Shown here in pieces: positions 16,890 through 42,484 of a stretch of 45,403 nt of DNA. Positions within the stretch are counted from its first letter, which is position 1. The number at the start of each line of letters is the position of its first letter. The notes under the pieces were generated by a model, which saw nothing but the letters and a program-made list of their open reading frames with translations, was not told the DNA's origin and ran no database searches. Origin of the DNA: Escherichia phage ECBP5. Position numbers and translations under genes: made by a program. The stretch lies in the sequence record NC_027330.1; one strand, given 5' to 3'.

Positions 16890-18013
16890 TGATGACTAAG
16901 ATGACTGAGAAGCAGCTTAAGGAGTGCCTTGTAGCTAAGATGACAACCAGTGAGATTGCTGAGAAGTTTGGCTTATCTCACAGGGCTGTTCAAATTCGCA
17001 AGGCAGCTTTAGCTAAGAAAGGCTACAGCCCTGAGCATGACATGGTGCATCAGGTTCCTGAGGGCTTCTTGCTTAAGGGTCAGTCAACCTTATATGGTAA
17101 GGATGGGGATGTTAAGCTGACTTGGGTTAAGTCATCTATTGACCGTGACAAGCAGCTTGAGCTACTGCGTGAGTTCATTGCTGGCATGGGTGATGACCTT
17201 CCTCGTGAGCTTCCAGTTACCTGTGGTGGTGTAGGTAGTGATGACCTGTTAAACCAGTTCACTATCACTGACTATCACTTAGGTATGCTGGCATGGGATG
17301 AGGAGTCTGGTGACAATTGGGATATGAAGATTGCAACTGACCTAATCCTCAAGTGGTTCCAAGAGGCTATCCGCTGTAGTCCTATGGCTAAGACAGCTGT
17401 GCTGGCTCAGCTTGGTGACTTCTTGCATTGGGATGGGCTGGATGCAGTTACCCCAAGTAGCGGTCATGTACTTGATGCGGACACACGCTTCCAGAAGCTG
17501 GCTCGTGCTGCCATCTACATCACAAGAGCTGTGATTAAGATGCTGCTTGAGAAGCATGAGAAAGTTCATGTTGTCTTTGCAGAGGGTAATCATGATATGG
17601 CTAGCTCAATCTGGATGCGTGAGTTCCTTACAGTGATGTATGAGGATGAACCTCGTATTACCATTGACCAGAGTCCAGACCCTTATTATTGCTATGTGCA
17701 TGGTGATACTACGTTGTTCTACCATCACGGCCATAAGAAGAAGATGGAGCAGTTGTCTGATGTGTTCGCTGCTAAGTTCCGTAGTGAGTGGGGTGCTAGT
17801 AAATATTCCTATGCTCACGTAGGTCACTTGCATCATCACAAAGTGATTGAAAGCCCACTGATGAAGGTAGAGCAGCATCAGACTCTGGCAGCTAAGGATG
17901 CTTATGCAAGCCGTGGTGGTTGGCTTAGCAAGCGAGCTGCTACTGTAATCACTTACCATAAGAAGTTTGGGGAAGTATGTAGGGCTACCATCACACCAGA
18001 GATGGTAAGTTAG
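16889..18013 (+). CDS. Calcineurin-like metallophosphoesterase with N-terminal HTH-like segment
   Basis: Metallophosphoesterase motif series DYH, GDFLHWD, GNHD, HHGH, GHLHHH; N-terminal TSEIAEKFGLSHRAVQIRKAALAKKG. Confidence 0.75.
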   Translation: MMTKMTEKQLKECLVAKMTTSEIAEKFGLSHRAVQIRKAALAKKGYSPEHDMVHQVPEGFLLKGQSTLYGKDGDVKLTWVKSSIDRDKQLELLREFIAGMGDDLPRELPVTCGGVGSDDLLNQFTITDYHLGMLAWDEESGDNWDMKIATDLILKWFQEAIRCSPMAKTAVLAQLGDFLHWDGLDAVTPSSGHVLDADTRFQKLARAAIYITRAVIKMLLEKHEKVHVVFAEGNHDMASSIWMREFLTVMYEDEPRITIDQSPDPYYCYVHGDTTLFYHHGHKKKMEQLSDVFAAKFRSEWGASKYSYAHVGHLHHHKVIESPLMKVEQHQTLAAKDAYASRGGWLSKRAATVITYHKKFGEVCRATITPEMVS

Positions 18014-18029
18014 AAACTACAATAGGACT
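18009..18029 (+). promoter_or_regulatory. Phage-RNAP promoter candidate (variant)
   Basis: GTTAGAAACTACAATAGGACT overlapping the upstream stop codon. Confidence 0.45.
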
Positions 18030-24008: not shown

Positions 24009-24030
24009 ATTAGGCACTACAATAGGAGAA
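24009..24030 (+). promoter_or_regulatory. Phage-RNAP promoter candidate (consensus copy) driving the capsid gene
   Basis: ATTAGGCACTACAATAGGAGAA. Confidence 0.6.
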
Positions 24031-28301: not shown

Positions 28302-28907
28302 ATGGCAGTAGCAGCTGGTGTAGGCGCTTGGGCTGCTGCTAACGCTGGTACAATCGCAGCGGTTAGTACAGCAGTAAGTGTTGCCGCCACTGCTGCCAGC
28401 TTTTATCAGCAAAGCCAACAGGCTAAGGCTCAAGAGCAGGCAGCTAAGAAGCAGAATGAGCAGCTGGCACAACAGGCAATCGAGTCATACGATGACCTTA
28501 CACCAGCAGAAATTGATGCTCAGCGCAATGCAGCAGATATGGAGCTTCAGCAAAAGGCAGAAGCTCTGCAAGCTAAGGGTAGGGTTAACGTATTCGCAGC
28601 AGCTTCAGGTACAGCTGGTCAGAGTGTAGATAGTATGCTTTTTAACATTGATGCCATCAAAGCACGTAACACTAATGAGATACTTAGGCAACGTGAGGCT
28701 GGCTTATTCAGCATCAAGCAACAAGCTGAGCAGTCAAGGCAAGGTGCTATCAGTAACATGAGCCGAGAAGCTATTCAGCGCCCATCGTGGGTTGAGGCAG
28801 GTCTTAAGATTGGTACTCAGACGATTAGTGGATTAGCAAACTATGACCAGAAGAATCGTGAGACTTTTAGCAAACAAGAGAAAGCAACAGTAAGGAGTAG
28901 CGTTTAA
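28302..28907 (+). CDS. Internal virion protein (T7 gp14-like)
   Basis: 201 aa, Ala/Gln-rich; first of three co-oriented genes of gp14/15/16-like sizes. Confidence 0.6.
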   Translation: MAVAAGVGAWAAANAGTIAAVSTAVSVAATAASFYQQSQQAKAQEQAAKKQNEQLAQQAIESYDDLTPAEIDAQRNAADMELQQKAEALQAKGRVNVFAAASGTAGQSVDSMLFNIDAIKARNTNEILRQREAGLFSIKQQAEQSRQGAISNMSREAIQRPSWVEAGLKIGTQTISGLANYDQKNRETFSKQEKATVRSSV

Positions 28908-31051
28908 TGGTGCAGCGTACAGAAGTTCAAGGTATGCAGCAGCTAGCAACAGGGCAGGTTAGTAGACCTGCTCAGGTTGTTCGCAGGGCTGTTGGGCCTA
29001 TCGATGATTCCAAGGTAAAGAGTTATGAAACAACTAACCGTATCCTAGGTGCTCTTGGTGATTTTGTAGATGCATCAAGTGAAGCAGCTTATAAGCAAGC
29101 TCAGGTTGATGTAGAGAAGAAGAAGATTAGTGGCATGGCTACCGCAGTCTCTGGTGGCAAACTTGGTGAGGAGGCCACTAAAGCTGAGTTGATGGGGTAT
29201 GACTTAGTTCAGTCTCAGTCTGAGCTGGCAGTGGCTAACGAGGAGTTATCCAAGGCTATAATGGCTCAGCCTGATATGGATGATGAAACCTACTCAAAGA
29301 TGCGGGATGCTAAGTATGGTGAATTGCTAGCTAAGTATCAAGACCGTGACCCTGATGTGTTCAAGGCCATCTCTGTTAAGGCTCAGGAGAGCCAAGGTGT
29401 ACTGTTCAATATCAGAACTAGAGCACAGAAAGAGTACAGAGATTACAAAGCCAAAGAAACCCTTAACTACAATATCAATAGTCAGCTTGATGGAGCTAGG
29501 TCTGTAGAGCAAGGTGTTAACTTAGTCCACCAGTATATGCACCAAGGTATGGCTATGGGCTTGAGTGAGCCAGATATTAAGGACATGCTTTTCCAGAACA
29601 TGAAGCTGACAGCAGCTAACGGTGACAACCGACTGCTTACATTCATGCAGAACATGGACTGGAGTAAGTATGCACCTGATACGCAGCAAGCTCAGAAAAT
29701 CTATAAATCTTATGTGGATGAAGCACAAGCCAAGTATGAAGCTGCTGTACAGAAGCAGAATGTATTTGCTTACGGGGCTATGTATGCTGAGCTAGAGACA
29801 GCTGCTAAGAATGGTACTCCACCAGAGCAGCTTATGCAGATGATGCAAAGTATGCAGGCTAAGGGTCTTAAGTTCACACCTTCAAGTGTGGCTAGCTACT
29901 TAACGATGGGGCAGAACATTAGCAAGTCTGAGGCTGCCTTACGTGGTAATGTGGCTGCATGGCAACAGAATCGTGGTCAGTTTAACCTAGCACAGAATCC
30001 ATTCATCCCTACTGATGATAAGAAGAAGGTGCTAGATGCTGCTGAGTCTGCTGTAATTGAGCAATCACAGAATGTGCCAGATGCGCAGCGTGGTGACTTT
30101 GTTATATCTAACCTTATTCGCCTGTCAGCTCAAGAAGGTATGCCAGTTAAGACTATTGGTACTGCTTTGCAAAGTCTAGCAACACTAGACACCAACGCTA
30201 CAATGACACCGTCTACTCAGCTCTGGACTAAGTACCTTATGGCTGCTGATGACCAGACTATCAGGATGAATGTACCTAGCGAGCAAGACCAAGCATTTCT
30301 GTTTGGGCTGCGTGATGTGCTAGCTAATAACCAAGGACAGGATGGAGACTTGATGCTCAAGACTGCTATCACTCGTGGTCAGCAGGTTAGGGATAATAAA
30401 GTTCCACTGACAACACAGCAGACTAATACTCTCCGTAGTAAGTCACTGTCTAATGTTAAGGACTTTAAAGACCCTACTCAAACCACTTGGTACTTCCGAG
30501 CTGAGAGCCTGCCTACACAGGTTAGGGATTATGTGGCTAATCAGGTTAATGCAAAGGCTAAGAGTCTTTATGCAGTAACTGGTAATACTGACAAAGCTGT
30601 TGAGCTTGCAACTAAGGAGTTCAAGAACAACAACATGATTCTTAGTGGTGGGGTAGTAGCTAACATTGGTGTGAGACAGCTTGCTGGGTTCATCCCTGAA
30701 TTTGCTCAGAAAGGTGACGATGCTGAGATGGTTCAGCGTAGAGCTGTGTCAGCCTTGGACTATAAGCTTGATAATATTATTAAGCAGCAGGCTAAGTCTG
30801 ACGGTATTGATTACAAACGAGAGGATGTGAATGTTATGTTCTCCAACTCTGGTAATACTTATCAGGTTAATGTTGGTGGACTGACAGTTGGCACATACTT
30901 CACAAGCGACTTAAAGAATGACTTCAATGAACAATTCTTTAAGCAGTGGAATGCTGAACAGGATAAACAGCTTGGTATCTCCGAGCGGTTCCGTCAGTTT
31001 GAGGAAACTAAAGACCTTCAACGCAAGGTACAGCAGATAATGCCTAAATAA
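28907..31051 (+). CDS. Internal virion protein (T7 gp15-like)
   Basis: 714 aa; position and size. Confidence 0.65.
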   Translation: MVQRTEVQGMQQLATGQVSRPAQVVRRAVGPIDDSKVKSYETTNRILGALGDFVDASSEAAYKQAQVDVEKKKISGMATAVSGGKLGEEATKAELMGYDLVQSQSELAVANEELSKAIMAQPDMDDETYSKMRDAKYGELLAKYQDRDPDVFKAISVKAQESQGVLFNIRTRAQKEYRDYKAKETLNYNINSQLDGARSVEQGVNLVHQYMHQGMAMGLSEPDIKDMLFQNMKLTAANGDNRLLTFMQNMDWSKYAPDTQQAQKIYKSYVDEAQAKYEAAVQKQNVFAYGAMYAELETAAKNGTPPEQLMQMMQSMQAKGLKFTPSSVASYLTMGQNISKSEAALRGNVAAWQQNRGQFNLAQNPFIPTDDKKKVLDAAESAVIEQSQNVPDAQRGDFVISNLIRLSAQEGMPVKTIGTALQSLATLDTNATMTPSTQLWTKYLMAADDQTIRMNVPSEQDQAFLFGLRDVLANNQGQDGDLMLKTAITRGQQVRDNKVPLTTQQTNTLRSKSLSNVKDFKDPTQTTWYFRAESLPTQVRDYVANQVNAKAKSLYAVTGNTDKAVELATKEFKNNNMILSGGVVANIGVRQLAGFIPEFAQKGDDAEMVQRRAVSALDYKLDNIIKQQAKSDGIDYKREDVNVMFSNSGNTYQVNVGGLTVGTYFTSDLKNDFNEQFFKQWNAEQDKQLGISERFRQFEETKDLQRKVQQIMPK

Positions 31052-31065
31052 GAGAGAGGTGAGTT

Positions 31066-34000
31066 ATGGCAGAGACAAGCGTACCCCAAGAGCAAAGCTT
31101 CGGCGACCTCTTTGGGGCTGCTGCTCGTAATAATTGGATATTACAGCAAAAGCAACAATCAGAGGACTTGATGACTTATGGTACGCCTGTTGAGGGCTAC
31201 AAGCCTAGCTATGAGGATGTCAGCAAGATTACCACTGATTATAAACTAACAGATGAGCAATCTAAGATTATCTCCGGCTCAATGAGTCCTGAGGAGCTAC
31301 AGTACCGAGCCAAGGTATTTAAGGATAATAACGACAGCAAGAAGACGCTTGACAATGCTGGGTGGAAAGGTATGGCAGCTGAGGTACTTAGCTATGCAGC
31401 TGACCCTGTGATGTTGCCAACATATGCACTTAAGACACCTATGGTTGTTGGTCAGATTGCTACAAAGCTTGGATTCCAGTTCTCTAAGACTGCTGTCACT
31501 GGTGCTATTGAAAGGGCTGTTGGTGCAGGTATCGTAGGTGGTGCAACTGGCTTAGGTCAGGAAGCTGTCCTGTCCATGTATGACCCAAATCGTGATGTCA
31601 ATGATGTCGTGTTGGCTGGTATCTCCGGTGTGGTTGGTGGTGCTGCATTCTCCAGCTTGGCTGATGGCGGCGCAGCTATCTTTGAGCGACTAACAGCTAA
31701 GCGTCAGCTTGGTAGGGCTATGGATGAAGCTGTTGAGGCATTTGATTGGGATAACAGCATTAGCCTAGTTAACTCAGCTGACCATGAGCTTACTGGAGCT
31801 TCTATGGGTCGCATCGAGAATACTCAATATGGTAAGTACTTTGACATGCTTCAGGGTGATATACCTGATGAACTAGCTCGTAAGCGTGTCCTTACCGAGG
31901 GTGATGCAATCAACAAAATGATTGATGACCTTACACCAACTGCTGAGGCTCGTATGTCTCGTGGTCAGCGTATGGAAGCAGAAGCACAGATTAAAGCTAC
32001 CTCTCATGATATGGAGATTATCGCACAGAGGCTTGCAGATGTGGAGGCAACTGCTCCAGCTGGTTCGGGTAAGGCGTTATCCAAGGCCAGACAAGATAGG
32101 GCTGCTGAGCTTAGCAGCTTGCGGTCACAACTTGATGACTTACGAGCGCAGGTTGTAACTAAGCAAACAGAGCTTGCCCCTCACGCAACTGGAGAGTATG
32201 CAGAGGCTGTTGGTGACATCAGCAGGCTTAAACAGGGTATCATCCCTGATAGACTTAAAGAACGATACCTCGATTTGATCACACCTGAAGACCCTGCACC
32301 AGCTTTCAATGAGGCTGTTGCTGGATTGCCACCAGTTAAAGATGAACCAGTGGTTCTCCCTGAGCAGGCAGCACAAGAAGCTGCTAAGCCAGTTGAGCAG
32401 CCTGATACCTCAATAGGTGCAGCTGAGGTTAAGGACTCTATCATCTTCCCTGACACGGAGGGTAAGGAGATTAGTGATACTTACGCTAATGTGCTTGGTG
32501 GGTTACAGAAGATTGGTGAGAAGATTCCAGTAACTAAGGTTGCTGGCTCAACTGCCTTGTACACCCGTGTCATGGCTGGTACTAAGGACAACACATTACG
32601 TGGTATTGCATCTTTAGTATTCAATGACCCACACGGTGTCAAGGGTGCTCCGCAGTCTGCCATTGCTTTCTCTGACACAATGCGCACCTCTATTATGCCT
32701 AAGGCATTCTTTATTGAGAATGCAGCTAAGGAGCAGTACCTCAAGCAGCTTGGTGTTAATCCACTATTCCAAGCTGGTAAGTATAATGAGGAGCTTATCA
32801 AGTTTGACCGAAACATTATGCTGCGCATGACAGAGCTTACTGACACTGTTATTGGTGATGCAGATGATGCAATTACCAGAGCTGCAAAGGCTCGTGCTCA
32901 GGCTTATGCTGAATCCCTCAAGCTTATGAAGCGATATGGTGTTCGTGGGTTTGAGAATGTAGAGGAACGTGCAAGCTATACTCCTGTTACCTTTGGCAAG
33001 AACGACATCACATCAGCCCTTGACCAGTTTGGTGAAGATGCAGTACGTGAAGTTCTAGCTCGTGGGTACATGACAGGTAAGATTCCGCTGTCAGATAAGT
33101 CAGCTCGATTGGTGGCAGATAACACACTTGAGCGTTTCTATCGCAAATCAGGCAAGGTAGCAGCTGTTAAGCCTACTGAATCTATCAGTGGTAAGATTGC
33201 TGAGGTTGTCAATGAGCTACGTGAGGGAGGTGTAGCTGATAGTGAAATCAGAACCGTTATTAACATGCTTCAAGATAAGGCTCATGATGAGTCAATCTCC
33301 GCTCGTGCCATGCAATCCTTACACCCTAACTTGGCAGCTGAAACCACTGATGGTCTGCGATTTGTGGACTTGGTGGATTCATCAACAGCTAGTGTGGATA
33401 AGTATGTACGAGATGCAGCAGCTCAGGCCGCCTTTGCCAAGTACGGTATGCGCTCACGCCGTCAGGTGGAGGATACTATCACTGAGGCATTCAAGCGTCA
33501 CCGCCAGCAGCTTACTGAGCTAACTGACAACTACAATCGAGCTAAGGAGAGGTTATCAAAGCTTGACCGTAGCAAGGCATTACCATCTGTGGTATCAGAG
33601 CTTGAGAAGACTATCAAGGACTATGAGCGCTTGGGTGATATTAATAAGTACCGTAAGTTCCTCGATAGCTATGAGGAAGACTTCTTCAACGGTGTCAAGG
33701 TTACTTTTGGTGAACCAGTTGAGCAGGCTAACAGTATTGCTTATGCTGCTAGCTCTACAGGTAAACTTGTTAACCTCATGATGCTTGGCTTCTCTGGTCT
33801 TGCTCAGGTAGCTGACTTGGGTGTTACGATAGCTCGTAGTGGTGTTGGTGCAACACTCAGGAACTTGCCAACTACCTTGTATCATGGTGTACGCTCCTTA
33901 TTGCCATCTGCACGTTACTTTGAAACCAATAATCAGTTAAACAACATGGCTGAGATATTTGGTACTGTAAGTCATCAAGACTACCTGTTTGGTCACAAGA

Positions 34001-34929
34001 TGATGAAGGGTGCTGAGTATGGCGATGCAGTTATTGGACAGGTGTCTAGGGCTGATAAGGTACTGGACAACATCGGATGGCTGCAAAGCACTATGTCCTT
34101 CCTCCGACCTATGCAGGGTATGATTGATGAGCTATCTGCTCGTAGCATCATGACCAACATAGTTGACCTGTCTAAGAATGGGATGTTCACTGGTAAGGTT
34201 CGCAAGAGCTTCCTTGAGCTTGGTAAGATGTCTGAGGATTCACTTGATTCCAGTATGACTCACATTAAGTCTCAGATGGGTTCTGGTAAGGACATCTTTG
34301 AAGCTATCCGCACACTTGACCCTAAGCTGCGTGATGAGCTTGGTACAGCTATTCGTACCATCCACACATTCAACATTGGCCGCTCTTACTATGGGGAGCT
34401 TCCAGCATTTACTAACCAATCGCTTGGTAAGATTTTCATGAAGCTTCAGTCATTCGCACTGGTAGCTTATGAGAAATCTATTCAGCGTGGTTTCCGTAAT
34501 GACCAAGCTGGATTAGTTGCAGCAACTGCTTGGTCAGCTGGATTAGCCTACTTGTGGTCTGAGGTGGATGTCCGTGCTCAGTCACTCAAGCAACCTGAGG
34601 CTAAGCGTGATGAGTACGTTCGTAAGCGCCTTGAGGATGAGATGGCTTATACAGTTGCCGGACGTATGTCTCAGCTTGCTGTACTCAGCACACTTGCTCA
34701 GGTCATGAACGTAGCTAACCCATATCAAGACAGTGTGCTCAAGCCTTTCGGTGAGTACCGTGGTGTTGCAGCAGGTGGTGCTATTGGCAAGGTTGGTCAG
34801 GCAGCAGCAGCTGGCACACGGCTTGCAACAGACCAGTCAGTAGACCCTGATGCTGATATGTATAAAGTCTATGGAGCTGTACCACTATTGAACACTGCAA
34901 TAGGTATGGCAATCCTCAACACATTATAG
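31066..34929 (+). CDS. Internal virion protein (T7 gp16-like), apparently without N-terminal transglycosylase domain
   Basis: 1287 aa; position and size; no ES...GLxQ motif seen at the N-terminus. Confidence 0.7.
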   Translation: MAETSVPQEQSFGDLFGAAARNNWILQQKQQSEDLMTYGTPVEGYKPSYEDVSKITTDYKLTDEQSKIISGSMSPEELQYRAKVFKDNNDSKKTLDNAGWKGMAAEVLSYAADPVMLPTYALKTPMVVGQIATKLGFQFSKTAVTGAIERAVGAGIVGGATGLGQEAVLSMYDPNRDVNDVVLAGISGVVGGAAFSSLADGGAAIFERLTAKRQLGRAMDEAVEAFDWDNSISLVNSADHELTGASMGRIENTQYGKYFDMLQGDIPDELARKRVLTEGDAINKMIDDLTPTAEARMSRGQRMEAEAQIKATSHDMEIIAQRLADVEATAPAGSGKALSKARQDRAAELSSLRSQLDDLRAQVVTKQTELAPHATGEYAEAVGDISRLKQGIIPDRLKERYLDLITPEDPAPAFNEAVAGLPPVKDEPVVLPEQAAQEAAKPVEQPDTSIGAAEVKDSIIFPDTEGKEISDTYANVLGGLQKIGEKIPVTKVAGSTALYTRVMAGTKDNTLRGIASLVFNDPHGVKGAPQSAIAFSDTMRTSIMPKAFFIENAAKEQYLKQLGVNPLFQAGKYNEELIKFDRNIMLRMTELTDTVIGDADDAITRAAKARAQAYAESLKLMKRYGVRGFENVEERASYTPVTFGKNDITSALDQFGEDAVREVLARGYMTGKIPLSDKSARLVADNTLERFYRKSGKVAAVKPTESISGKIAEVVNELREGGVADSEIRTVINMLQDKAHDESISARAMQSLHPNLAAETTDGLRFVDLVDSSTASVDKYVRDAAAQAAFAKYGMRSRRQVEDTITEAFKRHRQQLTELTDNYNRAKERLSKLDRSKALPSVVSELEKTIKDYERLGDINKYRKFLDSYEEDFFNGVKVTFGEPVEQANSIAYAASSTGKLVNLMMLGFSGLAQVADLGVTIARSGVGATLRNLPTTLYHGVRSLLPSARYFETNNQLNNMAEIFGTVSHQDYLFGHKMMKGAEYGDAVIGQVSRADKVLDNIGWLQSTMSFLRPMQGMIDELSARSIMTNIVDLSKNGMFTGKVRKSFLELGKMSEDSLDSSMTHIKSQMGSGKDIFEAIRTLDPKLRDELGTAIRTIHTFNIGRSYYGELPAFTNQSLGKIFMKLQSFALVAYEKSIQRGFRNDQAGLVAATAWSAGLAYLWSEVDVRAQSLKQPEAKRDEYVRKRLEDEMAYTVAGRMSQLAVLSTLAQVMNVANPYQDSVLKPFGEYRGVAAGGAIGKVGQAAAAGTRLATDQSVDPDADMYKVYGAVPLLNTAIGMAILNTL

Positions 34930-35865: not shown

Positions 35866-36099
35866 TTGATTCATGAGAAAGTAGGTGAGGTTGCAGCTGA
35901 AGCATTTAAGGCCACACCACCAACTGTTGTTGTTGGCCTGAACATCTTAGGTTACTCAATCTCTGAGTGGGTTCAGGTAGCTACACTTATCTATATCTTC
36001 TTACAGATGCATGTGCTAGCTATTAAGAATATAAGTTCATATAAATCCATGTGGGATTATGTTAAGGAGGTTATTCGTGGCAAGCGTAAGCAAGAGTAA
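35866..36099 (+). CDS. Class II holin (T7 gp17.5-like)
   Basis: 77 aa; TTG start after AGGAGG; hydrophobic SISEWVQVATLIYIFLQ resembles T7 gp17.5 SLNEWFYVAAIAYTVVQ; basic C-terminus. Confidence 0.6.
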   Translation: MIHEKVGEVAAEAFKATPPTVVVGLNILGYSISEWVQVATLIYIFLQMHVLAIKNISSYKSMWDYVKEVIRGKRKQE

Positions 36100-36403
36100 T
36101 AAGAATTCAGCCACAGAGGATGATGTAGGCCTTATCCATAAGCTTGTTACTAAGGTCATCACTAAGAAGCTTGAGAAGTGGTTAGAGCTTATTGAGCAGG
36201 GTGGTGACGTAGATTTAGTTGTGGATATGAAACAGCTCAAGTCTGCCATCGACTGGTGTGACAAGAATGGCATTGTATGTGCTGACCCAGCTGAGCAGAG
36301 TGACAATGAGCTTGGTGATAAACTGTCTGAGATTCGTAAAGCTCAACACGCTCGTGGTGTTGTCGTTCCATTCAAAGAGGATGAGGAGGGTTATGGTACA
36401 TGA
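36077..36403 (+). CDS. Terminase small subunit (T7 gp18-like)
   Basis: GTG start 6 nt after AAGGAGG; about 108 aa; directly upstream of and overlapping the large terminase gene. Confidence 0.6.
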   Translation: MASVSKSNKNSATEDDVGLIHKLVTKVITKKLEKWLELIEQGGDVDLVVDMKQLKSAIDWCDKNGIVCADPAEQSDNELGDKLSEIRKAQHARGVVVPFKEDEEGYGT

Positions 36404-38250
36404 GGCGTGTTAACAGGAACGACAAGAAAGCACAGCTAGAAATGTGGGAGGAGCTTGAAGCGATACAGAAAGCTTTTCCATTTACTGTGCAAGGCTTGTG
36501 GCTGTTTGCCTCACTTGTGCTTGAGAAGACTATTGTAGGCTCTCCTCACCTTAATCGCACACAGAAAGACATTCTTAGCTTCCTGCTTAACGGCGGGAAG
36601 TATATAGGCATACAGGCAAGCCGTGGTATGACCAAGACAGTTATGGCAGCTATCCTATGCTGCTTCTGTCTTATCCACATGCCACACTATCGTATCATTG
36701 TATTCTCACAGAACGGTAAGCGAGCTAAAGAGATTGCAGGCTGGGTAGTTAAAATCTTCTATGCTATAGACATCCTTGAGGTATTGCAGCCAGATACCTA
36801 TGCTGGCGACCGTTCATCCATTGAAGCTTTTGATATTCATTGGTGCTTCCGTGGTGCTGATAAGTCACCATCTGTCACCTGCTATTCTATCGAGTCAGGT
36901 GCGCAGGGTGCTCGTGCTGACCTTATCCTTGCTGATGATATTGAGTCGCTACAAAACTCCCGTACAGCTCAGAGCCGTGAGTGGCTGCTTGAGCAGTCAT
37001 TAGAGTTTGAGTCGATTAACCAGTATGGTCGTATCATCTATCTAGGTACACCTCAGGGTGTTGAGTCTATCTACAACACGCTTCCAGCTCGTGGCTACGT
37101 TATGCGTATCTGGCCTGGCCGTTATCCAACAGCTGAGCAGCTTGAGTTCTATGGCAATGCTCTGGCTCCATTATTCCGTAAGGATATTGAAGCTGACCCA
37201 AGCTTGCAAAGCGGTGGTGGGCTTGATGGTACTATGGGCAAGCCAACAACACCTGCTATGTATGATGAGGAGTTGTTGCAAGAGAAGGAGATGAGGCAAG
37301 GTCTTGCTAAGTTCATGTTGCAGTTCATGGTTCACACAGGTATGTCTGACCGTGACCGCTTCAAGCTTAAGCTAGAGAATCTGGTACTAATGAACTTCAA
37401 TGCCATGCAAGGTGCGGTTATGCCTGTGTGGAACAGTGACCAACGTAGCATGTGGCAAGCTGCCCCTCGCTTTGGTACACGTCCACAAGACAGGTTCTAC
37501 TTTGCTATGCAGCAGCCATATATCATGCGTGACTTTGACCTAACTGTTATGTTCATTGACCCAGCTGGTGGTGGCTCCCGCTCACAGGATGAGATGGGTT
37601 ATGCGATAACCAAGCTACTCGGTACTTATGTCTACATCTATGATGTTGATGGTGTCAAGGGTGGGTATGAACAATCAGAGCTGATGAAGCTTGTACAAGC
37701 TGCTAAGGATGCTAAGGTCAACGTTTGCTATGTTGAAAAGAACTATGGTAACGGTGCTCACTTTGCAATGCTTAAGCCACTGTTTGAGAAGTTTTACCCA
37801 GAGTGTAGGCTTGAGGAAATTAACTCAACAGGTCAGAAGGAACTACGTATCATCGATACACTAGAACCACTGCTGGGTCAGCATCGCTTGGTAGTATCAC
37901 AGACAGCTGTTATGAAGGACTACAACAGCATTCAGAAGTACCCAGCAGAGGTCAAGATGACTTACAGCTGCTTCTACCAACTTGCTCACATAACGAGCGA
38001 CCGTGGGGCGCTGAGGCACGATGACCGCTTAGACGCACTGGCTGGGGCTGTGGCGCAGATTGTCAACTACATCGACTATGACCAAGAGAAGGCCGAGAAA
38101 GACCGACAGGCGGAGGCTGACAAGCATTTCTTTGAGGTTATGGCTAACCCTAATGGTTTCGTCCACACGATGATGCACGGTGGTGATTTTATGAGCTATG
38201 TTGAGCAGCAAAACACCGGAGCCAACGCACTCAAGAAATACTTTAATTAA
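36400..38250 (+). CDS. Terminase large subunit (T7 gp19-like)
   Basis: 616 aa; position after holin/small subunit; ATPase-like LILADDIESL segment. Confidence 0.8.
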   Translation: MRRVNRNDKKAQLEMWEELEAIQKAFPFTVQGLWLFASLVLEKTIVGSPHLNRTQKDILSFLLNGGKYIGIQASRGMTKTVMAAILCCFCLIHMPHYRIIVFSQNGKRAKEIAGWVVKIFYAIDILEVLQPDTYAGDRSSIEAFDIHWCFRGADKSPSVTCYSIESGAQGARADLILADDIESLQNSRTAQSREWLLEQSLEFESINQYGRIIYLGTPQGVESIYNTLPARGYVMRIWPGRYPTAEQLEFYGNALAPLFRKDIEADPSLQSGGGLDGTMGKPTTPAMYDEELLQEKEMRQGLAKFMLQFMVHTGMSDRDRFKLKLENLVLMNFNAMQGAVMPVWNSDQRSMWQAAPRFGTRPQDRFYFAMQQPYIMRDFDLTVMFIDPAGGGSRSQDEMGYAITKLLGTYVYIYDVDGVKGGYEQSELMKLVQAAKDAKVNVCYVEKNYGNGAHFAMLKPLFEKFYPECRLEEINSTGQKELRIIDTLEPLLGQHRLVVSQTAVMKDYNSIQKYPAEVKMTYSCFYQLAHITSDRGALRHDDRLDALAGAVAQIVNYIDYDQEKAEKDRQAEADKHFFEVMANPNGFVHTMMHGGDFMSYVEQQNTGANALKKYFN

Positions 38251-38283
38251 TGGCAATAATCCCTTAGTTTTCATAACTTTGGG

Positions 38284-38305
38284 ATTAGGCACTACAATAG
38301 GAGAA
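38284..38305 (+). promoter_or_regulatory. Phage-RNAP promoter candidate (consensus copy)
   Basis: ATTAGGCACTACAATAGGAGAA followed by AGTAAG-repeat leader. Confidence 0.6.
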
Positions 38306-38422
38306 AGCTAAAGTAAGTACAGTAAGTAAACAGTAGCTATAAATAGCTATAGTAAGCTTTAGTTAGCCTAAGTAGTAACCTACTTATTGTCTTATTATAT
38401 TCTTTATAAGGAGAGCTATTAG

Positions 38423-39034
38423 ATGGCTACATATACCACCAGCATACTTAAGCTTATAAAAGGCTCTTTGTCTTCTGGTAAACTGCCTAAGGCTAACTCA
38501 CAAGGTGACTTAGTTGACTCTAAGTTAACTGATGATGGCACAAAGCTTGCTTACAATGGTAATGAAGTAACAGACTCTCGCACACAGCGTAAAAAGACTG
38601 AGGTCTATTACACTGGTGTTTCTGTTACTCTCACTGCGGGTACTCAGTACAATTTAGTAAACCTGTTAAAAGCTCTTACAGCAAACTCAGGTACACTTGC
38701 ACCATTCTTTGACACTACATCCAACAAACTCAAGGTTATTAATGATAATGCTAGTTGCATGTTCAAACTTAACCTAGTAGGCAACTGGGCGAACGCATCA
38801 TCAGATAGGAGTCTTCAGGTTGACTTTGTAGGAACAAACGGCAACAGGTTAGTTGCTAACAGGTCTTCAGCTACCACAGCTGATTCATTAACACTATCTA
38901 CTTTCTTATCTGTTGATAAGAATGGTAACTTAGCAACAAATGGCAGCACTGTTAACTTAACAGCTGTTGGTATCAACTTCACAATTACATCTGCGCTTCT
39001 TATTGCTGAGCAGGTAACTAAAGAATCTTTCTAA
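38423..39034 (+). CDS. Hypothetical late protein, Ser/Thr/Asn-rich (203 aa)
   Basis: AAGGAGAG RBS; own promoter upstream. Confidence 0.6.
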   Translation: MATYTTSILKLIKGSLSSGKLPKANSQGDLVDSKLTDDGTKLAYNGNEVTDSRTQRKKTEVYYTGVSVTLTAGTQYNLVNLLKALTANSGTLAPFFDTTSNKLKVINDNASCMFKLNLVGNWANASSDRSLQVDFVGTNGNRLVANRSSATTADSLTLSTFLSVDKNGNLATNGSTVNLTAVGINFTITSALLIAEQVTKESF

Positions 39035-39046
39035 GGAGATTAACAT

Positions 39047-39325
39047 ATGCCACGTAATATTACTGGTGATTCACCTAAGTCTGTACAAACTCAGTCCGTA
39101 TCTATGCTGCCAGTGGCTATTGTCACTCAGGCAAACTTGGCTAGCGCAGCTCACCCTATCAACGATACTACCAAGTCTGGCAAGCAAGTTGGTGGTCTGG
39201 TCTACGTTAAGCTGACTACTGGTGGTAATGTCTGCATCGCAATTGCTCAGGGTTCTGGCGCTACTGATAAGTGGCTGGTACTTGGCATGGATGCTGCTGG
39301 CTTCATTGAAGTAACACCAGCTTAA
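39047..39325 (+). CDS. Hypothetical protein (92 aa)
   Basis: AAGGAGA RBS. Confidence 0.55.
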   Translation: MPRNITGDSPKSVQTQSVSMLPVAIVTQANLASAAHPINDTTKSGKQVGGLVYVKLTTGGNVCIAIAQGSGATDKWLVLGMDAAGFIEVTPA

Positions 39326-39335
39326 TAAGGTTGGT

Positions 39336-39356
39336 CAGTCTAGTACGCTAGACTGG
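39336..39356. repeat. Palindrome family copy, terminator-like
   Basis: CAGTCTAGTACGCTAGACTGG followed by CCTCTTTCT. Confidence 0.6.
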
Positions 39357-39368
39357 CCTCTTTCTACT

Positions 39369-39926
39369 ATGAATACATTACTAATGCTACTTGCGTTAAT
39401 AAATCCTGTTCAGAAGTTAGAGCAAGATTTATCAAAGCACATAGAAATTTATACACACCAAGGAGGTTCCGAGTTGAATCGCAGTCAATTCCAGCGCTAT
39501 ATATTGCGCCCTACCCTTGAGAAGCTTGGTCTATACTCGCCACAAGCTGAGCGCTTGCTGACTATGATTGTAGCCCATGAATCTCTCAAGGGTCATTATA
39601 TTGTACAGACCACAGGGCAGGCTAAAGGCTTGTACCAGATGGAGAATGCAACACACGATGATGTGCTGCGTTGGGTTCACAATAACCGTCCTGAGCTTTA
39701 CCGTGAGATTGTAGAAATGGGTGATGGTCAGCCGTCAGCAGTTAAGATGATTACTGACTTAGACTATGCAACCGCTATGGCTCGCGCGTTCTTCCTCCGC
39801 TTTCCTGAGCCGTTGCCGACAGGCAACGACGAGGAGCTTGCAGCATACGCTAAGAAGCGCTGGAACACTCACTTAGGTAAGGCCACTCCTGACGACTACT
39901 TGAAGGCTTATCAGTCTTGGAAGTAA
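39369..39926 (+). CDS. Lytic transglycosylase-like protein (putative endolysin)
   Basis: AHESLKG...GQAKGLYQME fits the ES...GLxQ transglycosylase signature (compare T7 gp16 N-terminus TESRF...GPLGMMQF); short N-terminal hydrophobic stretch. Confidence 0.7.
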   Translation: MNTLLMLLALINPVQKLEQDLSKHIEIYTHQGGSELNRSQFQRYILRPTLEKLGLYSPQAERLLTMIVAHESLKGHYIVQTTGQAKGLYQMENATHDDVLRWVHNNRPELYREIVEMGDGQPSAVKMITDLDYATAMARAFFLRFPEPLPTGNDEELAAYAKKRWNTHLGKATPDDYLKAYQSWK

Positions 39927-40038
39927 GTTGCAGCAGCTGGTGTCAGCTTAAGTGGCAGGAGGCAGTTGAGTCAGGTGATGACTTAGCTGCCAGTGACTAT
40001 CTAAAGCTCTATGAGCTTTGGAGTAGCAGAGGTATGTA

Positions 40039-40353
40039 ATGAGTACAAGCAATATACCTAGCTTAGGTGGCTTCACTCCTATTGAGTCTCTTGTAAAAGG
40101 CGGTAGTGCTAAAGACATCTTCAATCCAATGAACATCTGGAATGATGGTGCAGGTGTATTACAGAAGCCATCGTCCTTGTTTACCAAGGAGACTATTACT
40201 GGAACAGGTAAGGACACTGAGAAGTCTCGTACTAAAGCTCAGGAAGAGGAAGATAGTGCTGCTGCTAAGCAAAGCTCTAGGGATGCTAACAAGTGGCTCA
40301 ACTGGACACCTAGTAGAAGTAGCACTAATACTAAAACTGGTTTATCTATTTAG
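40039..40353 (+). CDS. Hypothetical protein (104 aa)
   Basis: ORF with internal acidic patch. Confidence 0.5.
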   Translation: MSTSNIPSLGGFTPIESLVKGGSAKDIFNPMNIWNDGAGVLQKPSSLFTKETITGTGKDTEKSRTKAQEEEDSAAAKQSSRDANKWLNWTPSRSSTNTKTGLSI

Positions 40354-40361
40354 GAGTAATC

Positions 40362-40511
40362 ATGGGTAAGATTTTTAAGAATAAGAAAGTAGTAGCAGCT
40401 GCTGTTACCTTAGTTCTTGTCATCTTGGGTACAGCCCTAGGGACTGACTTGGGTGCAGATACTGCAAATAGCGTTACTGACCTTATCTGCACTATTGTAA
40501 GCTGTCAGTAA
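40362..40511 (+). CDS. Small membrane protein (49 aa)
   Basis: TAGGAG RBS; single hydrophobic helix VVAAAVTLVLVILGTALG; not in ORF track. Confidence 0.4.
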   Translation: MGKIFKNKKVVAAAVTLVLVILGTALGTDLGADTANSVTDLICTIVSCQ

Positions 40512-40720
40512 TGATTAAAGCTCTCCTTGAAGTTCTGGCAATCCTGCTCCGAGCTATTGAAAGGAAGCAAGTAAAAGAGGAGCAGCAAGATGCGCAAGCT
40601 GAAGCTGATCGTATTAGCACCAATCCTACTGAGTGGTTTAATGATCACTTCAGGGTGCGTACAGAGTCCAGCAAGACAGATGCCAGTAAAGCCAGCCCTG
40701 ACAACAGTCACACAAGTTGA
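40511..40720 (+). CDS. Putative i-spanin (Rz-like)
   Basis: N-terminal hydrophobic segment followed by charged helix; overlaps o-spanin candidate in another frame. Confidence 0.5.
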   Translation: MIKALLEVLAILLRAIERKQVKEEQQDAQAEADRISTNPTEWFNDHFRVRTESSKTDASKASPDNSHTS

Positions 40721-40799
40721 TGGTCAGATGTGCATGGATTTACAAGATGCAACTAAGTTGGGTTTGTACATACTAGGCCTTGAGCGCGGCTATCAGTAG
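40590..40799 (+). CDS. Putative o-spanin lipoprotein (Rz1-like)
   Basis: Signal peptide with lipobox-like LMITSGC, Pro-rich mature part; starts inside the i-spanin ORF in the +1 frame. Confidence 0.55.
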   Translation: MRKLKLIVLAPILLSGLMITSGCVQSPARQMPVKPALTTVTQVDGQMCMDLQDATKLGLYILGLERGYQ

Positions 40800-40855
40800 C
40801 CGCCTTATTACTCATAGCTATTCACAGTGAGTGGCTAGCAGTAATAGGAGATAAC

Positions 40856-42484
40856 ATGGCTAAACTTACAAGAGTAACGGACGCATTTGTGTACGTTAAG
40901 TCTAAATTAGCTGGAGCAATCCAGCGACTGTTAGAAGACAAGATGACTGACACTCTATCCATTAAGGATTTTGGTGCAGTCGGAGATGGTGTGCATGATG
41001 ACACAGATGCAATCATTGCAGCCTTCGCAGCTGCTAAGAACAAGTTTGGGGTCATTGCACCCTCAGGCCGTTATCGTGTAACCAGAGAGATTCCAGTCGA
41101 TTATGCACTGGTACTTATCGGGGAAGGTGGGAATGGCTTTAAGGGTACAAACTCAAGCCACAATCCATCGCCTCACTTTGGCACTACCTTTGTAAGTGAC
41201 ATGGCTAGTGGATACGTGTTCAATATCTCACCTGCTGCTTTCCAGTTTGGTCTTACCTTGCGTGACTTCTCTATCGAGCGTAACGAGTCATTAGGTATCA
41301 ACAATGCACGAGGTATGAGACTACATAATGTAGGGTGGACTGGTATCGTAGACAACGTGTGTATTGATGGCTTCTGGGAACATGGCTTGGTTATTGGTTA
41401 TATCCAAGATACACACTTCCGAGGCTGTACGGTATTACGTTGTGGTAATGAAGATGTGCCTAGTATTGAGATTGTTAATGACTCAAACTACGTATACTTC
41501 TTAAACTGCCATATCGAGTATTCTCCGTTCCTGTTCAAGAATACTGGCAATGCTTGGGAAGTTCACTTCACAAATAACCACTTTGAAGTTGCACAGTACG
41601 GCTCTAGCTCTGGTCTGCCTACCTTGAAGTATAAGCAAGCTCCGCTACAGCTTGGTGGTGGCAACATGGTTACTTTCAATACTTGTACAATTGTACCAGT
41701 ATCTGATGAGTATCTTCAGACTGCCCTTGGCATACCGTTTGACTCTTTACCATATTTCATTACTGGCTCGGGTTCATTCGTCAAGTTCATCAACTGCTCT
41801 GGTATTGCGCCAGAAGGTTCTGTCAGCTACATGTACCTAACAGGTACTGGTAATAAGGTACTTGGTGGCACATGGAAAGACATGACACCTAGGCGCCCTA
41901 GTATTGTCCTTGAAGATGGTGACATTGCTAATAACACATTAGCTATCCGTGTAGCTGCTGATGAGACAAAGCTGTACGGTGTCTTAGTCAATACTCGTGG
42001 CAAGATTACTGATAACTTGTTAACTGCATCAGGTACAGCGTCTACTACACGCAGAACTACTGGCATCCTTGTTGGATGTAGCCCTAGTGCGCCATTAGGA
42101 GCTGTTCAAGTTAGTGGTAACACTTATGACCTTGGTAATAGACCTAACCGCTATGTCTACCATCGTATTCAGATCAGTGGTCATGATGGAGGCTGCTCTT
42201 ACTTTGAGGGTATTAATGCCGCATTGTTTGACTTGGACTATGAGCTTTATAACCCTGCTGCAAACTTTGCTATGTGGAATACAACCTCATGGCAAGTGAC
42301 CAGTCAGGTCAATATGAATCCAGGACGTGTAGTAATGTTCCACGCAGGTGCAATAGCTGGATTTATTAATTACAGTGCATATGTAAAGAATGCTACGTTT
42401 AATAACCTTGCAGTAGAAGCTGGTGCATCTATTATGTACAAAGGCATCTCTGACGGTGAAGCAAGGATGTTCCAAGTTAAGTAA
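40856..42484 (+). CDS. Tailspike with pectate-lyase-like beta-helix domain (putative polysaccharide depolymerase)
   Basis: IKDFGAVGDGVHDDTDAIIAAF is a pectate-lyase-type beta-helix N-cap signature; 542 aa. Confidence 0.85.
   Translation: MAKLTRVTDAFVYVKSKLAGAIQRLLEDKMTDTLSIKDFGAVGDGVHDDTDAIIAAFAAAKNKFGVIAPSGRYRVTREIPVDYALVLIGEGGNGFKGTNSSHNPSPHFGTTFVSDMASGYVFNISPAAFQFGLTLRDFSIERNESLGINNARGMRLHNVGWTGIVDNVCIDGFWEHGLVIGYIQDTHFRGCTVLRCGNEDVPSIEIVNDSNYVYFLNCHIEYSPFLFKNTGNAWEVHFTNNHFEVAQYGSSSGLPTLKYKQAPLQLGGGNMVTFNTCTIVPVSDEYLQTALGIPFDSLPYFITGSGSFVKFINCSGIAPEGSVSYMYLTGTGNKVLGGTWKDMTPRRPSIVLEDGDIANNTLAIRVAADETKLYGVLVNTRGKITDNLLTASGTASTTRRTTGILVGCSPSAPLGAVQVSGNTYDLGNRPNRYVYHRIQISGHDGGCSYFEGINAALFDLDYELYNPAANFAMWNTTSWQVTSQVNMNPGRVVMFHAGAIAGFINYSAYVKNATFNNLAVEAGASIMYKGISDGEARMFQVK

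Follow-up and report, generated by a model that had tools for sequence, protein, structure and literature searches.

How does Escherichia phage ECBP5 arrange its lysis genes, and which of its small membrane proteins pairs with the lipoprotein of the outer-membrane step? The question was raised by positions 35,866 to 40,799 of the sequence NC_027330.1 (45,403 nucleotides (nt) in all, the window hereafter), for which an original prediction, made from the letters alone, described a split lysis cassette with an overlapping pair of inner-membrane (i-) and outer-membrane (o-) spanin genes. Escherichia phage KBNP1315 is the same phage as ECBP5, and its genome and lysis cassette, the latter named in the title, were described by Lee et al. 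2015, PLoS One (PMC4640515). The coordinates of open reading frames (ORFs) 46, 51, 52, 53, 54, 55 and 56 in the window are those of S2 Table of that paper, which gives the same genome length of 45,403 bp; ORF51 and ECBP5_0051 have the same protein sequence (100% identity), and the ORF46 sequence and ORF51 N-terminus printed in its supplementary figures are the same as the window translations. The phage belongs to the SP6-like genus Gajwadongvirus, and over the 4.9-kb region it shares 93% nucleotide identity with two other members, Pectobacterium phage PP99 and Pseudomonas phage MR4.

We consider it likely that the lysis system of ECBP5 is split over two places on one strand, among the late genes. 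All the ORFs listed in the original prediction were found at their coordinates on the + strand; they are conserved, and each matches a phage protein family. The split layout is already known, having been published in 2015 for this very genome, with the holin ORF46 upstream of the terminase genes and the endolysin ORF51, "Rz" ORF54 and "Rz1" ORF55 downstream (PMC4640515). Annotations of SP6, K1-5 and other relatives show the identical gene order (holin, TerS and TerL, then endolysin, small membrane protein and lipoprotein, then tailspike), and the layout is therefore a known trait of the whole SP6-like group. The observation was thus accurate and its interpretation largely right, though published already, and as stated it has little consequence, being common to all SP6-like phages. 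Two things are added here to PMC4640515: the gp16-like protein has no transglycosylase domain, and both the signal peptide and the lipobox of the lipoprotein are canonical. The expression tests in that paper covered the holin and the endolysin; no experiment on ORF54, ORF55 or the ORF starting at 40511 was reported in it.

The upstream part of the system is ORF46 (35866–36099, + strand), a probable T7-type holin of 77 residues with a TTG start after AGGAGG. It overlaps the start of TerS (36059–36403, + strand), which is followed by TerL (36400–38250, + strand). ORF46 matched the holin family phrog_920 (3e-14), in which T7 gp17.5 is also found (1.2e-30), and this common family, together with the overlap with TerS, agrees with the claim that the holin stands upstream of the terminase as in T7. 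The match to Pfam PF10746 scored 24.3 bits, 1.1 below the cut-off of 25.4, and direct BLASTP gave no alignment of ORF46 with T7 gp17.5, so that the two are linked through the profile family only. Hydropathy analysis showed one clear transmembrane domain (TMD; residues 35–53) and a weaker stretch (residues 19–31), and the C-terminus is basic (RGKRKQE). Expression of ORF46 alone caused moderate growth inhibition, and its co-expression with ORF51 led to a faster fall in optical density, interpreted as synergy (PMC4640515).

The downstream part begins behind a promoter for a phage RNA polymerase. The sequence at 38285–38301 (+ strand), downstream of TerL, is an exact match to the consensus TTAGGCACTACAATAGG, found 10 times in the window where 0.22 matches would be expected; this promoter was placed at 38283–38302 in PMC4640515. 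Its place just past TerL puts the endolysin and spanin genes into one late unit together with those for the needle knob and the tailspike. Upstream of the holin, the closest consensus match is at 24010.

ORF51 (39369–39926, + strand; 185 residues) was predicted to be a transglycosylase-type endolysin, and both its fold and its motifs fit this assignment. The AlphaFold2 (AF2) model (mean predicted local distance difference test score (pLDDT) 89.7) contains a folded domain from about residue 37, preceded by a disordered linker. This lysozyme-like or lytic-transglycosylase-like domain (residues ~37–185) has E71-S72 as the putative catalytic residues, and a Foldseek search with the model ranked MltE first. 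In an alignment of 40 homologues, E71, S72, Q90 and E92 are invariant and a G-x-(Y/F)-Q-M-E stretch is conserved; E71-S72 and GxxQ align with WTES...GMMQ of T7 gp16. HHpred had likewise tied ORF51 to lytic transglycosylases, and its induction in E. coli BL21 caused rapid lysis that was delayed or blocked by sodium azide in a dose-dependent manner (PMC4640515). Going by the modelled fold, ORF51 is most likely a lysozyme-superfamily enzyme of the family-1 lytic transglycosylase type, a chemistry that we infer.

Several points weigh against this assignment. No Pfam or NCBIfam family, SLT included, was matched by ORF51 at E <= 0.1, nor was any PDB sequence; its match is to phrog_3108 (6e-47), whose function label is unknown. 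The fold alone does not separate lytic transglycosylase from muramidase chemistry, and azide is a blunt tool for showing Sec dependence. The N-terminus (MNTLLMLLALINP...) has no basic n-region and fits neither a classical signal peptide nor a signal-arrest-release (SAR) domain. It holds 9–10 hydrophobic residues (TLLMLLALI, residues 3–11, followed by N-P; hydropathy KD19 0.81), and the AF2 helix covers residues 2–11 only. The hallmark of SAR endolysins is a weakly hydrophobic N-terminal TMD of ~16–20 residues, rich in Gly, Ala and Ser. The stretch in ORF51 is too short for such a TMD; the protein was called a SAR endolysin in PMC4640515. From its sequence, the N-terminus seems closer to an atypical, short signal or to a tether.

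The endolysin gene also contains an internal start (39474–39926, + strand), a TTG at codon 36 behind AAGGAGG (both within 39456–39476), which would give a form of 150 residues. This start has a strong Shine–Dalgarno sequence (SD), and the ATG at 39369 has none. An internal SD with TTG or ATG at the codon-36 position was present in all eight lineages examined, in two of which the upstream frame is closed, and many gene callers report the 150-residue form; the internal start goes unmentioned in PMC4640515. Conservation of the internal SD and start therefore suggests a cytoplasmic isoform of 150 residues beside the exported one of 185, and the shorter form, which would lack the N-terminal hydrophobic segment, is probably also made. 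If true, a two-isoform endolysin bears on the antimicrobial use of the enzyme.

For the outer-membrane step, the lipoprotein is the firmest component. ORF55 ("Rz1"; 40590–40799, + strand; 69 residues) matched the Rz-like spanin family phrog_8971 (8e-32). Its signal peptide consists of MRKLK and 14 hydrophobic residues and leads to Cys23 at the end of LMITSGC, with Val24, and no Asp, at the +2 position; the lipobox T-S-G-C (residues 20–23; 40647–40658, + strand) was read directly from the sequence. For comparison, 45 sequences were collected from the window itself, from the region in other phage records and from 31 loci of IMG/VR. Of these, 41 have the lipoprotein, and the lipobox pattern [ILMFTV][^REKD][GAS]C was found in 41/41. 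The mature part of 47 residues contains an invariant C48 and ends in DAxxLGLYIxxLERxY. The gene carries its own SD, AAGAGGAG, and starts 78 nt downstream of the 49-residue gene. It lies in the +1 frame of the 69-residue ORF at 40511–40720 with an overlap of 131 nt, and the +1 relation holds throughout the 41 loci. The lipobox-like LMITSGC and the +1 overlap were thus as predicted, and ORF55, which has every sequence feature of an o-spanin, is a strong candidate for that role.

The overlapping partner gene (40511–40720, + strand; 69 residues), proposed as the i-spanin, matched phrog_9219 (1.5e-29), which has an unknown function label, and is unannotated in KBNP1315. Its ATG overlaps the stop of the 49-residue gene (TAATG). 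The protein has a short hydrophobic or amphipathic helix at its N-terminus, followed by a charged helical part with an invariant AQxEA...NPxxW(F/Y)xxHF motif. The 49-residue gene and an open ORF of 58–73 codons, one nt behind the lipoprotein frame, were present in every one of the 41 lipoprotein loci, in which the third frame is open for only 4–23 codons. The ORF starts with ATG, GTG or TTG, and either overlaps the upstream stop by 1, 4 or 8 nt or begins no more than 4 nt after it; this start–stop coupling is held although the frame relation to the 49-residue gene differs between clades. In the 22 codons outside the lipoprotein overlap, the ratio of nonsynonymous to synonymous polymorphism (pN/pS) was 0.52, compared with 2.6 and 0.92 in the other frames, and the entropy at the three codon positions was 0.98/0.49/1.39, with the least variation at position 2. 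Independent gene callers also reported the protein (47 clusters, all of 53–73 residues). The open frame, the coupled starts, the coding signature and the gene calls together show that this ORF is a genuine gene, coupled in translation to the one upstream. The original prediction had remarked on its unusual shortness; it is short indeed, and 58–73 residues is the norm of the clade. Its invariant motif falls where the lipoprotein signal peptide, itself unusually invariant, is encoded. Translated matches to the 69-residue ORF and to ORF55 each came from ~160 phage records, and those to the 49-residue protein from 104.

A frameshift fusion of the 49- and 69-residue genes into an i-spanin of 118 residues was considered and rejected. 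The frame relation is −1 in Gajwadongvirus, VL73 and Reminis and +1 in SP6, K1-5 and the Klebsiella and Proteus phages, each lineage has its own start codon for the 69-residue ORF at the junction, and none of the 47 clusters exceeds 73 residues. The shifting relation and the absence of long forms exclude the fusion.

ORF54 (40362–40511, + strand), the 49-residue inner-membrane protein, matched phrog_4712 (1e-23), which is labelled "holin". It has a basic N-terminus, an uncharged TMD of 19 residues (KD19 2.37; summed Hessa-scale insertion energy −0.87) and a predicted periplasmic tail of 21 residues ending in CxxxxC. Only 14% of the tail residues are charged, and the tail falls short of the charged helical domain that would let an i-spanin reach the o-spanin. 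The protein goes under three incompatible labels: Rz or i-spanin (Rz in PMC4640515, i-spanin in the records of Premi and LL11), holin (in RefSeq) and hypothetical. A census of spanins (Kongari et al. 2018, PMC6139136) listed its homologue as the "separated" i-spanin of SP6, K1-5 and K1E, flagging the protein as "Too small?" and its pair with the lipoprotein as "Too short"; in the related UAB_Phi78, the same census took the overlapping 69-residue ORF as the i-spanin. Vibrio phage ICP3 has an ORF54 homologue (phrog_4712, 45% identity) directly upstream of a lipoprotein gene of 65 codons, the start of which overlaps its stop. This pair (1765–2105 in the ICP3 sequence examined) lies between genes 18 and 19 (the T7 18.5/18.7 slot), the acidic-tailed lipoprotein is unrelated to ORF55 (phrog_10167), and no ORF of the 69-residue type was found at the ICP3 locus. 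The RefSeq record of ICP3 annotates another ORF of 30 residues (orf51) and not the ORF54 homologue of 47 residues.

Which small protein, then, is the partner of the lipoprotein? We tentatively assign this role to the 69-residue protein, as an Rz-like i-spanin, at slightly less than an even chance. After its helix, 36% of the residues are charged, compared with 34% in Rz and 38% in T7 gp18.5. The clade median of its hydrophobic segment is 12 uncharged residues with a 15-residue hydropathy (KD15) of 2.09, and its 15-residue maximum is no worse than that of the T7 gp18.5 control (KD15 1.72, KD19 1.35). When the three periplasmic parts were modelled by AF2 as one linked chain, pLDDT was 71–76 for the helices of the 69-residue protein, 75–83 for the β-hairpin and helix of the lipoprotein, and 31–40 for the 49-residue tail.

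A number of observations speak against this assignment. The helix of the ECBP5 protein is a run of 13 residues broken by E7 and R14 (KD19 1.06, hydrophobic moment 0.58), the gene has no SD of its own, and the C-terminal third of the ORF is poorly conserved. The linked model had a mean pLDDT of 52.6 and gives per-residue confidence only, with no contact map, and is weak evidence. PMC4640515, the census (for SP6, K1-5 and K1E), Premi and LL11 all name the 49-residue protein instead, and in ICP3 its homologue is paired with a lipoprotein and no 69-residue ORF. Of the predicted overlapping spanin pair, the lipoprotein and the +1 overlap are therefore borne out, and the i-spanin role of the 69-residue protein is disputed by these assignments.

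It is possible, though on balance unlikely, that the 49-residue protein alone is the partner, as the i-spanin of a minimal, separated two-component spanin, with another or an accessory role for the ORF at 40511. Its strong N-in TMD, its periplasmic CxxxxC tail, the names given to it and the gene arrangement in ICP3 all fit such a role. Its tail, however, offers only 21 weakly charged residues, which with the lipoprotein make 68–71, the length that drew the flags of the census, and it was modelled at low confidence in the linked model. The tail is also kept between ICP3-type and SP6-type phages though their lipoproteins are unrelated, and a specific tail-to-tail contact is therefore disfavoured. 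Moreover, this reading gives no explanation for an Rz-like ORF that is strictly conserved, coupled in translation and placed in the canonical overlap. Less probable again is a complex of three parts, in which both the 49- and the 69-residue proteins would join the lipoprotein.

These readings bear on the SP6-like group at large (~160 phage records). The outer-membrane step there may be carried out by a three-gene module consisting of a Cys-tailed anchor of 49 residues, a coupled Rz-like protein of 58–73 residues mostly ignored by annotations, and the lipoprotein. With some doubt, we give about one chance in three to the view that the group has such a module with all three members required, or that the overlooked 69-residue ORF is the true i-spanin and the 49-residue protein is misassigned. 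A smaller novelty would be an endolysin made in two isoforms from conserved alternative starts, one exported and the other cytoplasmic. Settling the partner would correct the spanin annotation of a large group of therapeutic-candidate coliphages and of Klebsiella, Salmonella and Proteus phages, and define the smallest working spanin. Where Rz is classically encoded, the ECBP5 genome and several reference genomes have a strictly conserved, coupled ORF that their annotation passes over.

That ORF54 has nothing to do with the spanin, and is a second holin, pinholin or antiholin controlling the exported endolysin, is improbable. phrog_4712 and phrog_9987 are labelled holin, PP99, SP6, K1-5 and many other records annotate the protein as such, and it is a small, single-TMD protein near the endolysin, which, if exported, would need membrane depolarisation only. 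The label, however, is an annotation by position for which no supporting experiment was found. The charges of ORF54 are the reverse of those of a typical holin, since its basic N-terminus would lie inside and its short, acidic C-terminus, which contains Cys, outside, and a T7-family holin, ORF46, is already present in the genome. In addition, lipoprotein genes accompany the 49-residue gene in two unrelated contexts, and genes for non-exported M15 endolysins do so in SP6 and K1-5.

The original prediction further held that the transglycosylase domain carried by T7 gp16 appears to be encoded here by a gene of its own. The gp16-like internal virion protein ORF44 (31066–34929, + strand; 1,287 residues) has no match in Pfam. 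In phrog_342, labelled "internal virion protein with endolysin domain", its match begins no earlier than position 217 of the 1235 in the profile, and its BLASTP alignment with T7 gp16 begins at T7 residue 276. As both alignments miss the N-terminal part, the transglycosylase domain is absent from ORF44. This half of the claim stood; the other half was overstated, since ORF51 shares only the catalytic motif with gp16. When its descent from the gp16 domain was tried by hhalign against the T7 gp16 N-terminus, the motif alone was aligned, with a probability of 1.7%, and this candidate origin was rejected. phrog_3108 is a family of its own, mostly from marine Vibrio, Alteromonas and Pseudoalteromonas phages, with homologues in Acetobacter phages as well. 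The hhalign result, this family of unrelated phages and the M15 enzyme found in the same slot of relatives point to a replacement of endolysin type and not to relocation of a virion domain. Alongside ORF44, the gp15-like protein (28907–31051; 714 residues) matched phrog_4290, "lysozyme domain-containing protein", over positions 5–694 of 969, and from this match it appears to lack the part that names the family; neither internal virion protein of ECBP5 has a recognisable wall-degrading domain.

We therefore also weighed whether ORF51 is not an endolysin at all and is a virion-associated, wall-degrading enzyme for infection, replacing the domain lost from the gp16-like protein, and found this very unlikely. 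Consistent with it are the loss of that domain, the end of the gp15-like match before the "lysozyme domain" end of its profile, the ES...GxxQ motif common to ORF51 and T7 gp16, and the position of the gene behind structural genes (needle knob and ORF50) in one transcription unit. However, the protein has an N-terminal export signal and causes azide-blocked lysis from within, and an exported protein is not packageable in the capsid. Its slot is that of the M15 endolysin in SP6 and K1-5, its homologues in other phages adjoin holins in some cases and are annotated as endolysins in some, and no specific relationship to gp16 was detectable in the hhalign comparison.

The weakest alternative, that the ORF at 40511 is no gene and is open only through conservation of the overlapping lipoprotein gene (131 of its 210 nt are shared, it has no SD, and it is unannotated in KBNP1315, K1-5 and K1E), is hardly credible: the coding signature in its non-overlapping codons rules out such a by-product, and the short third frame, the start that keeps touching the upstream stop however the frame relation changes, the coincidence of its invariant P, W, H and F with the signal peptide, and the 47 gene-caller clusters all stand against it.

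With the 69-residue protein as the preferred partner, lysis could proceed as follows. ORF46 would permeabilise or depolarise the inner membrane at the end of infection. ORF51, a probable lytic transglycosylase with Glu71 as the catalytic residue, would be expressed after the promoter at 38285; its long form would reach the periplasm through Sec, and the form of 150 residues from the internal TTG would depend on the holin. ORF55, anchored in the outer membrane via Cys23, would carry out the outer-membrane step together with a small inner-membrane partner. The 69-residue protein, coupled to the 49-residue gene and overlapping the lipoprotein gene in the +1 relation, would be this Rz-like partner, leaving the 49-residue protein as a second subunit or as an accessory membrane protein. 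Of these steps, lysis by the endolysin, its block by azide and the mild, synergistic effect of the holin come from published experiments (PMC4640515), and fold, motifs, conservation, coding status and gene geometry from the present analysis; the enzyme chemistry, the two isoforms, the topologies and the choice of the protein that binds the lipoprotein are inferred from these.

Two small ORFs between the endolysin and the 49-residue gene had been overlooked in the original prediction, all of whose listed ORFs are real. ORF52 (39917–40039, + strand) encodes a soluble protein of 40 residues (phrog_1312, 3e-16) with a CxxWC...YxxLxxW pattern, and overlaps the end of the endolysin gene. Every examined relative showing the interval has a homologue between the endolysin and the 49-residue gene, regardless of the endolysin type; homologues were seen in SP6, K1-5, UAB_Phi78, PmP19, Reminis and Aer_P220, with Proteus, Klebsiella, Ralstonia and Aeromonas phages included. 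ORF52 may be a lysis regulator. The paper on AerP_220 was found to say nothing about lysis genes. ORF53 (40039–40353, + strand), a low-complexity protein of 104 residues (phrog_38226, 1.5e-68) in which no TMD was found, is confined to the PP99/ECBP5/MR4 group; SP6, K1-5 and the other relatives lack it at this position.

Ahead of the endolysin, a tail needle knob protein of the Sf6 type (PF16532, 1.4e-44) is encoded at 38423–39034 in this T7/SP6-like podovirus. It is followed by a protein of 92 residues (39047–39325), for which the database label is "acetyl-CoA acetyltransferase" (phrog_2725), with only profile positions 11–99 of 238 matched; the label is probably a misnomer. A terminator-like scan found a stem-loop of 11 bp at 39333–39358 (+ strand), 10 nt upstream of the endolysin ATG, which from its sequence is possibly a processing site or a weak terminator. 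A GC-rich stem-loop of 7 bp at 40786–40803, without a proper T-run, spans the lipoprotein stop just ahead of the tailspike gene; ORF56 lies at 40856–42484 (S2 Table of PMC4640515). A scan of the region for sigma-70 promoters gave 11 sites, compared with 14.1 in shuffled sequence, and thus no excess. For the phage polymerase, PMC4640515 predicted seven promoters in its text and has eight promoter lines in its S2 Table; matches missing from that table are an exact one at 24010–24026, before the capsid gene, and weaker ones at 7914–7930 and 18010–18026.

Compared with known systems, the closest arrangement is that of SP6, K1-5 and K1E (Zindervirus and Vectrevirus), which have the same gene order, including the ORF of 40 residues, the TMD protein of 49 residues, an ORF of 58–73 residues overlapping a lipoprotein of 69 residues, and the tailspike. 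Unlike ECBP5, they have neither the ORF53 of 104 residues nor a needle-knob gene, and in SP6 and K1-5 an M15-type peptidase of ~115 residues occupies the slot held in ECBP5 by the lysozyme-fold enzyme of 185 residues. That enzyme resembles MltE, Slt70 and gp144 of phage phiKZ in its lysozyme-like fold and in a catalytic Glu followed by Ser, at a sequence identity of 9–18%. The paper on KBNP1315 differs from the present reading in that its "Rz" is the 49-residue protein and the ORF at 40511–40720 is absent from its annotation (PMC4640515). The Vibrio phage ICP3/VP4 pair of 47 and 65 residues (PMC6139136) is like ECBP5 in that the stop of the 49-residue homologue overlaps the start of a small lipoprotein gene, and differs in its unrelated lipoprotein (phrog_10167), its lack of a 69-residue ORF, and its position between TerS and TerL.

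T7, like ECBP5, has a holin of the same PHROG just before TerS, and in both phages the lipoprotein is read in the +1 frame of the gene for its inner-membrane partner, a putative one in ECBP5. The T7 spanin genes, however, are placed between TerS and TerL, and 18.7 is contained entirely within the gene for gp18.5 (143 residues), whereas those of ECBP5 lie downstream of TerL and overlap within an ORF of 69 residues without embedding. The T7 endolysin is the amidase gp3.5, and T7 gp16, unlike the gp16-like protein of ECBP5, has the transglycosylase domain. With lambda Rz/Rz1, ECBP5 shares a lipoprotein with a periplasmic Cys, a small (in ECBP5 putative) inner-membrane partner with a charged helical periplasmic part, and genes that overlap out of frame, but no sequence similarity. 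The periplasmic parts amount to ~53 + 47 residues in ECBP5 with the 69-residue protein, or 21 + 47 with the 49-residue one, compared with ~130 + 40 in lambda, and ECBP5 has in addition the conserved 49-residue protein coupled upstream.

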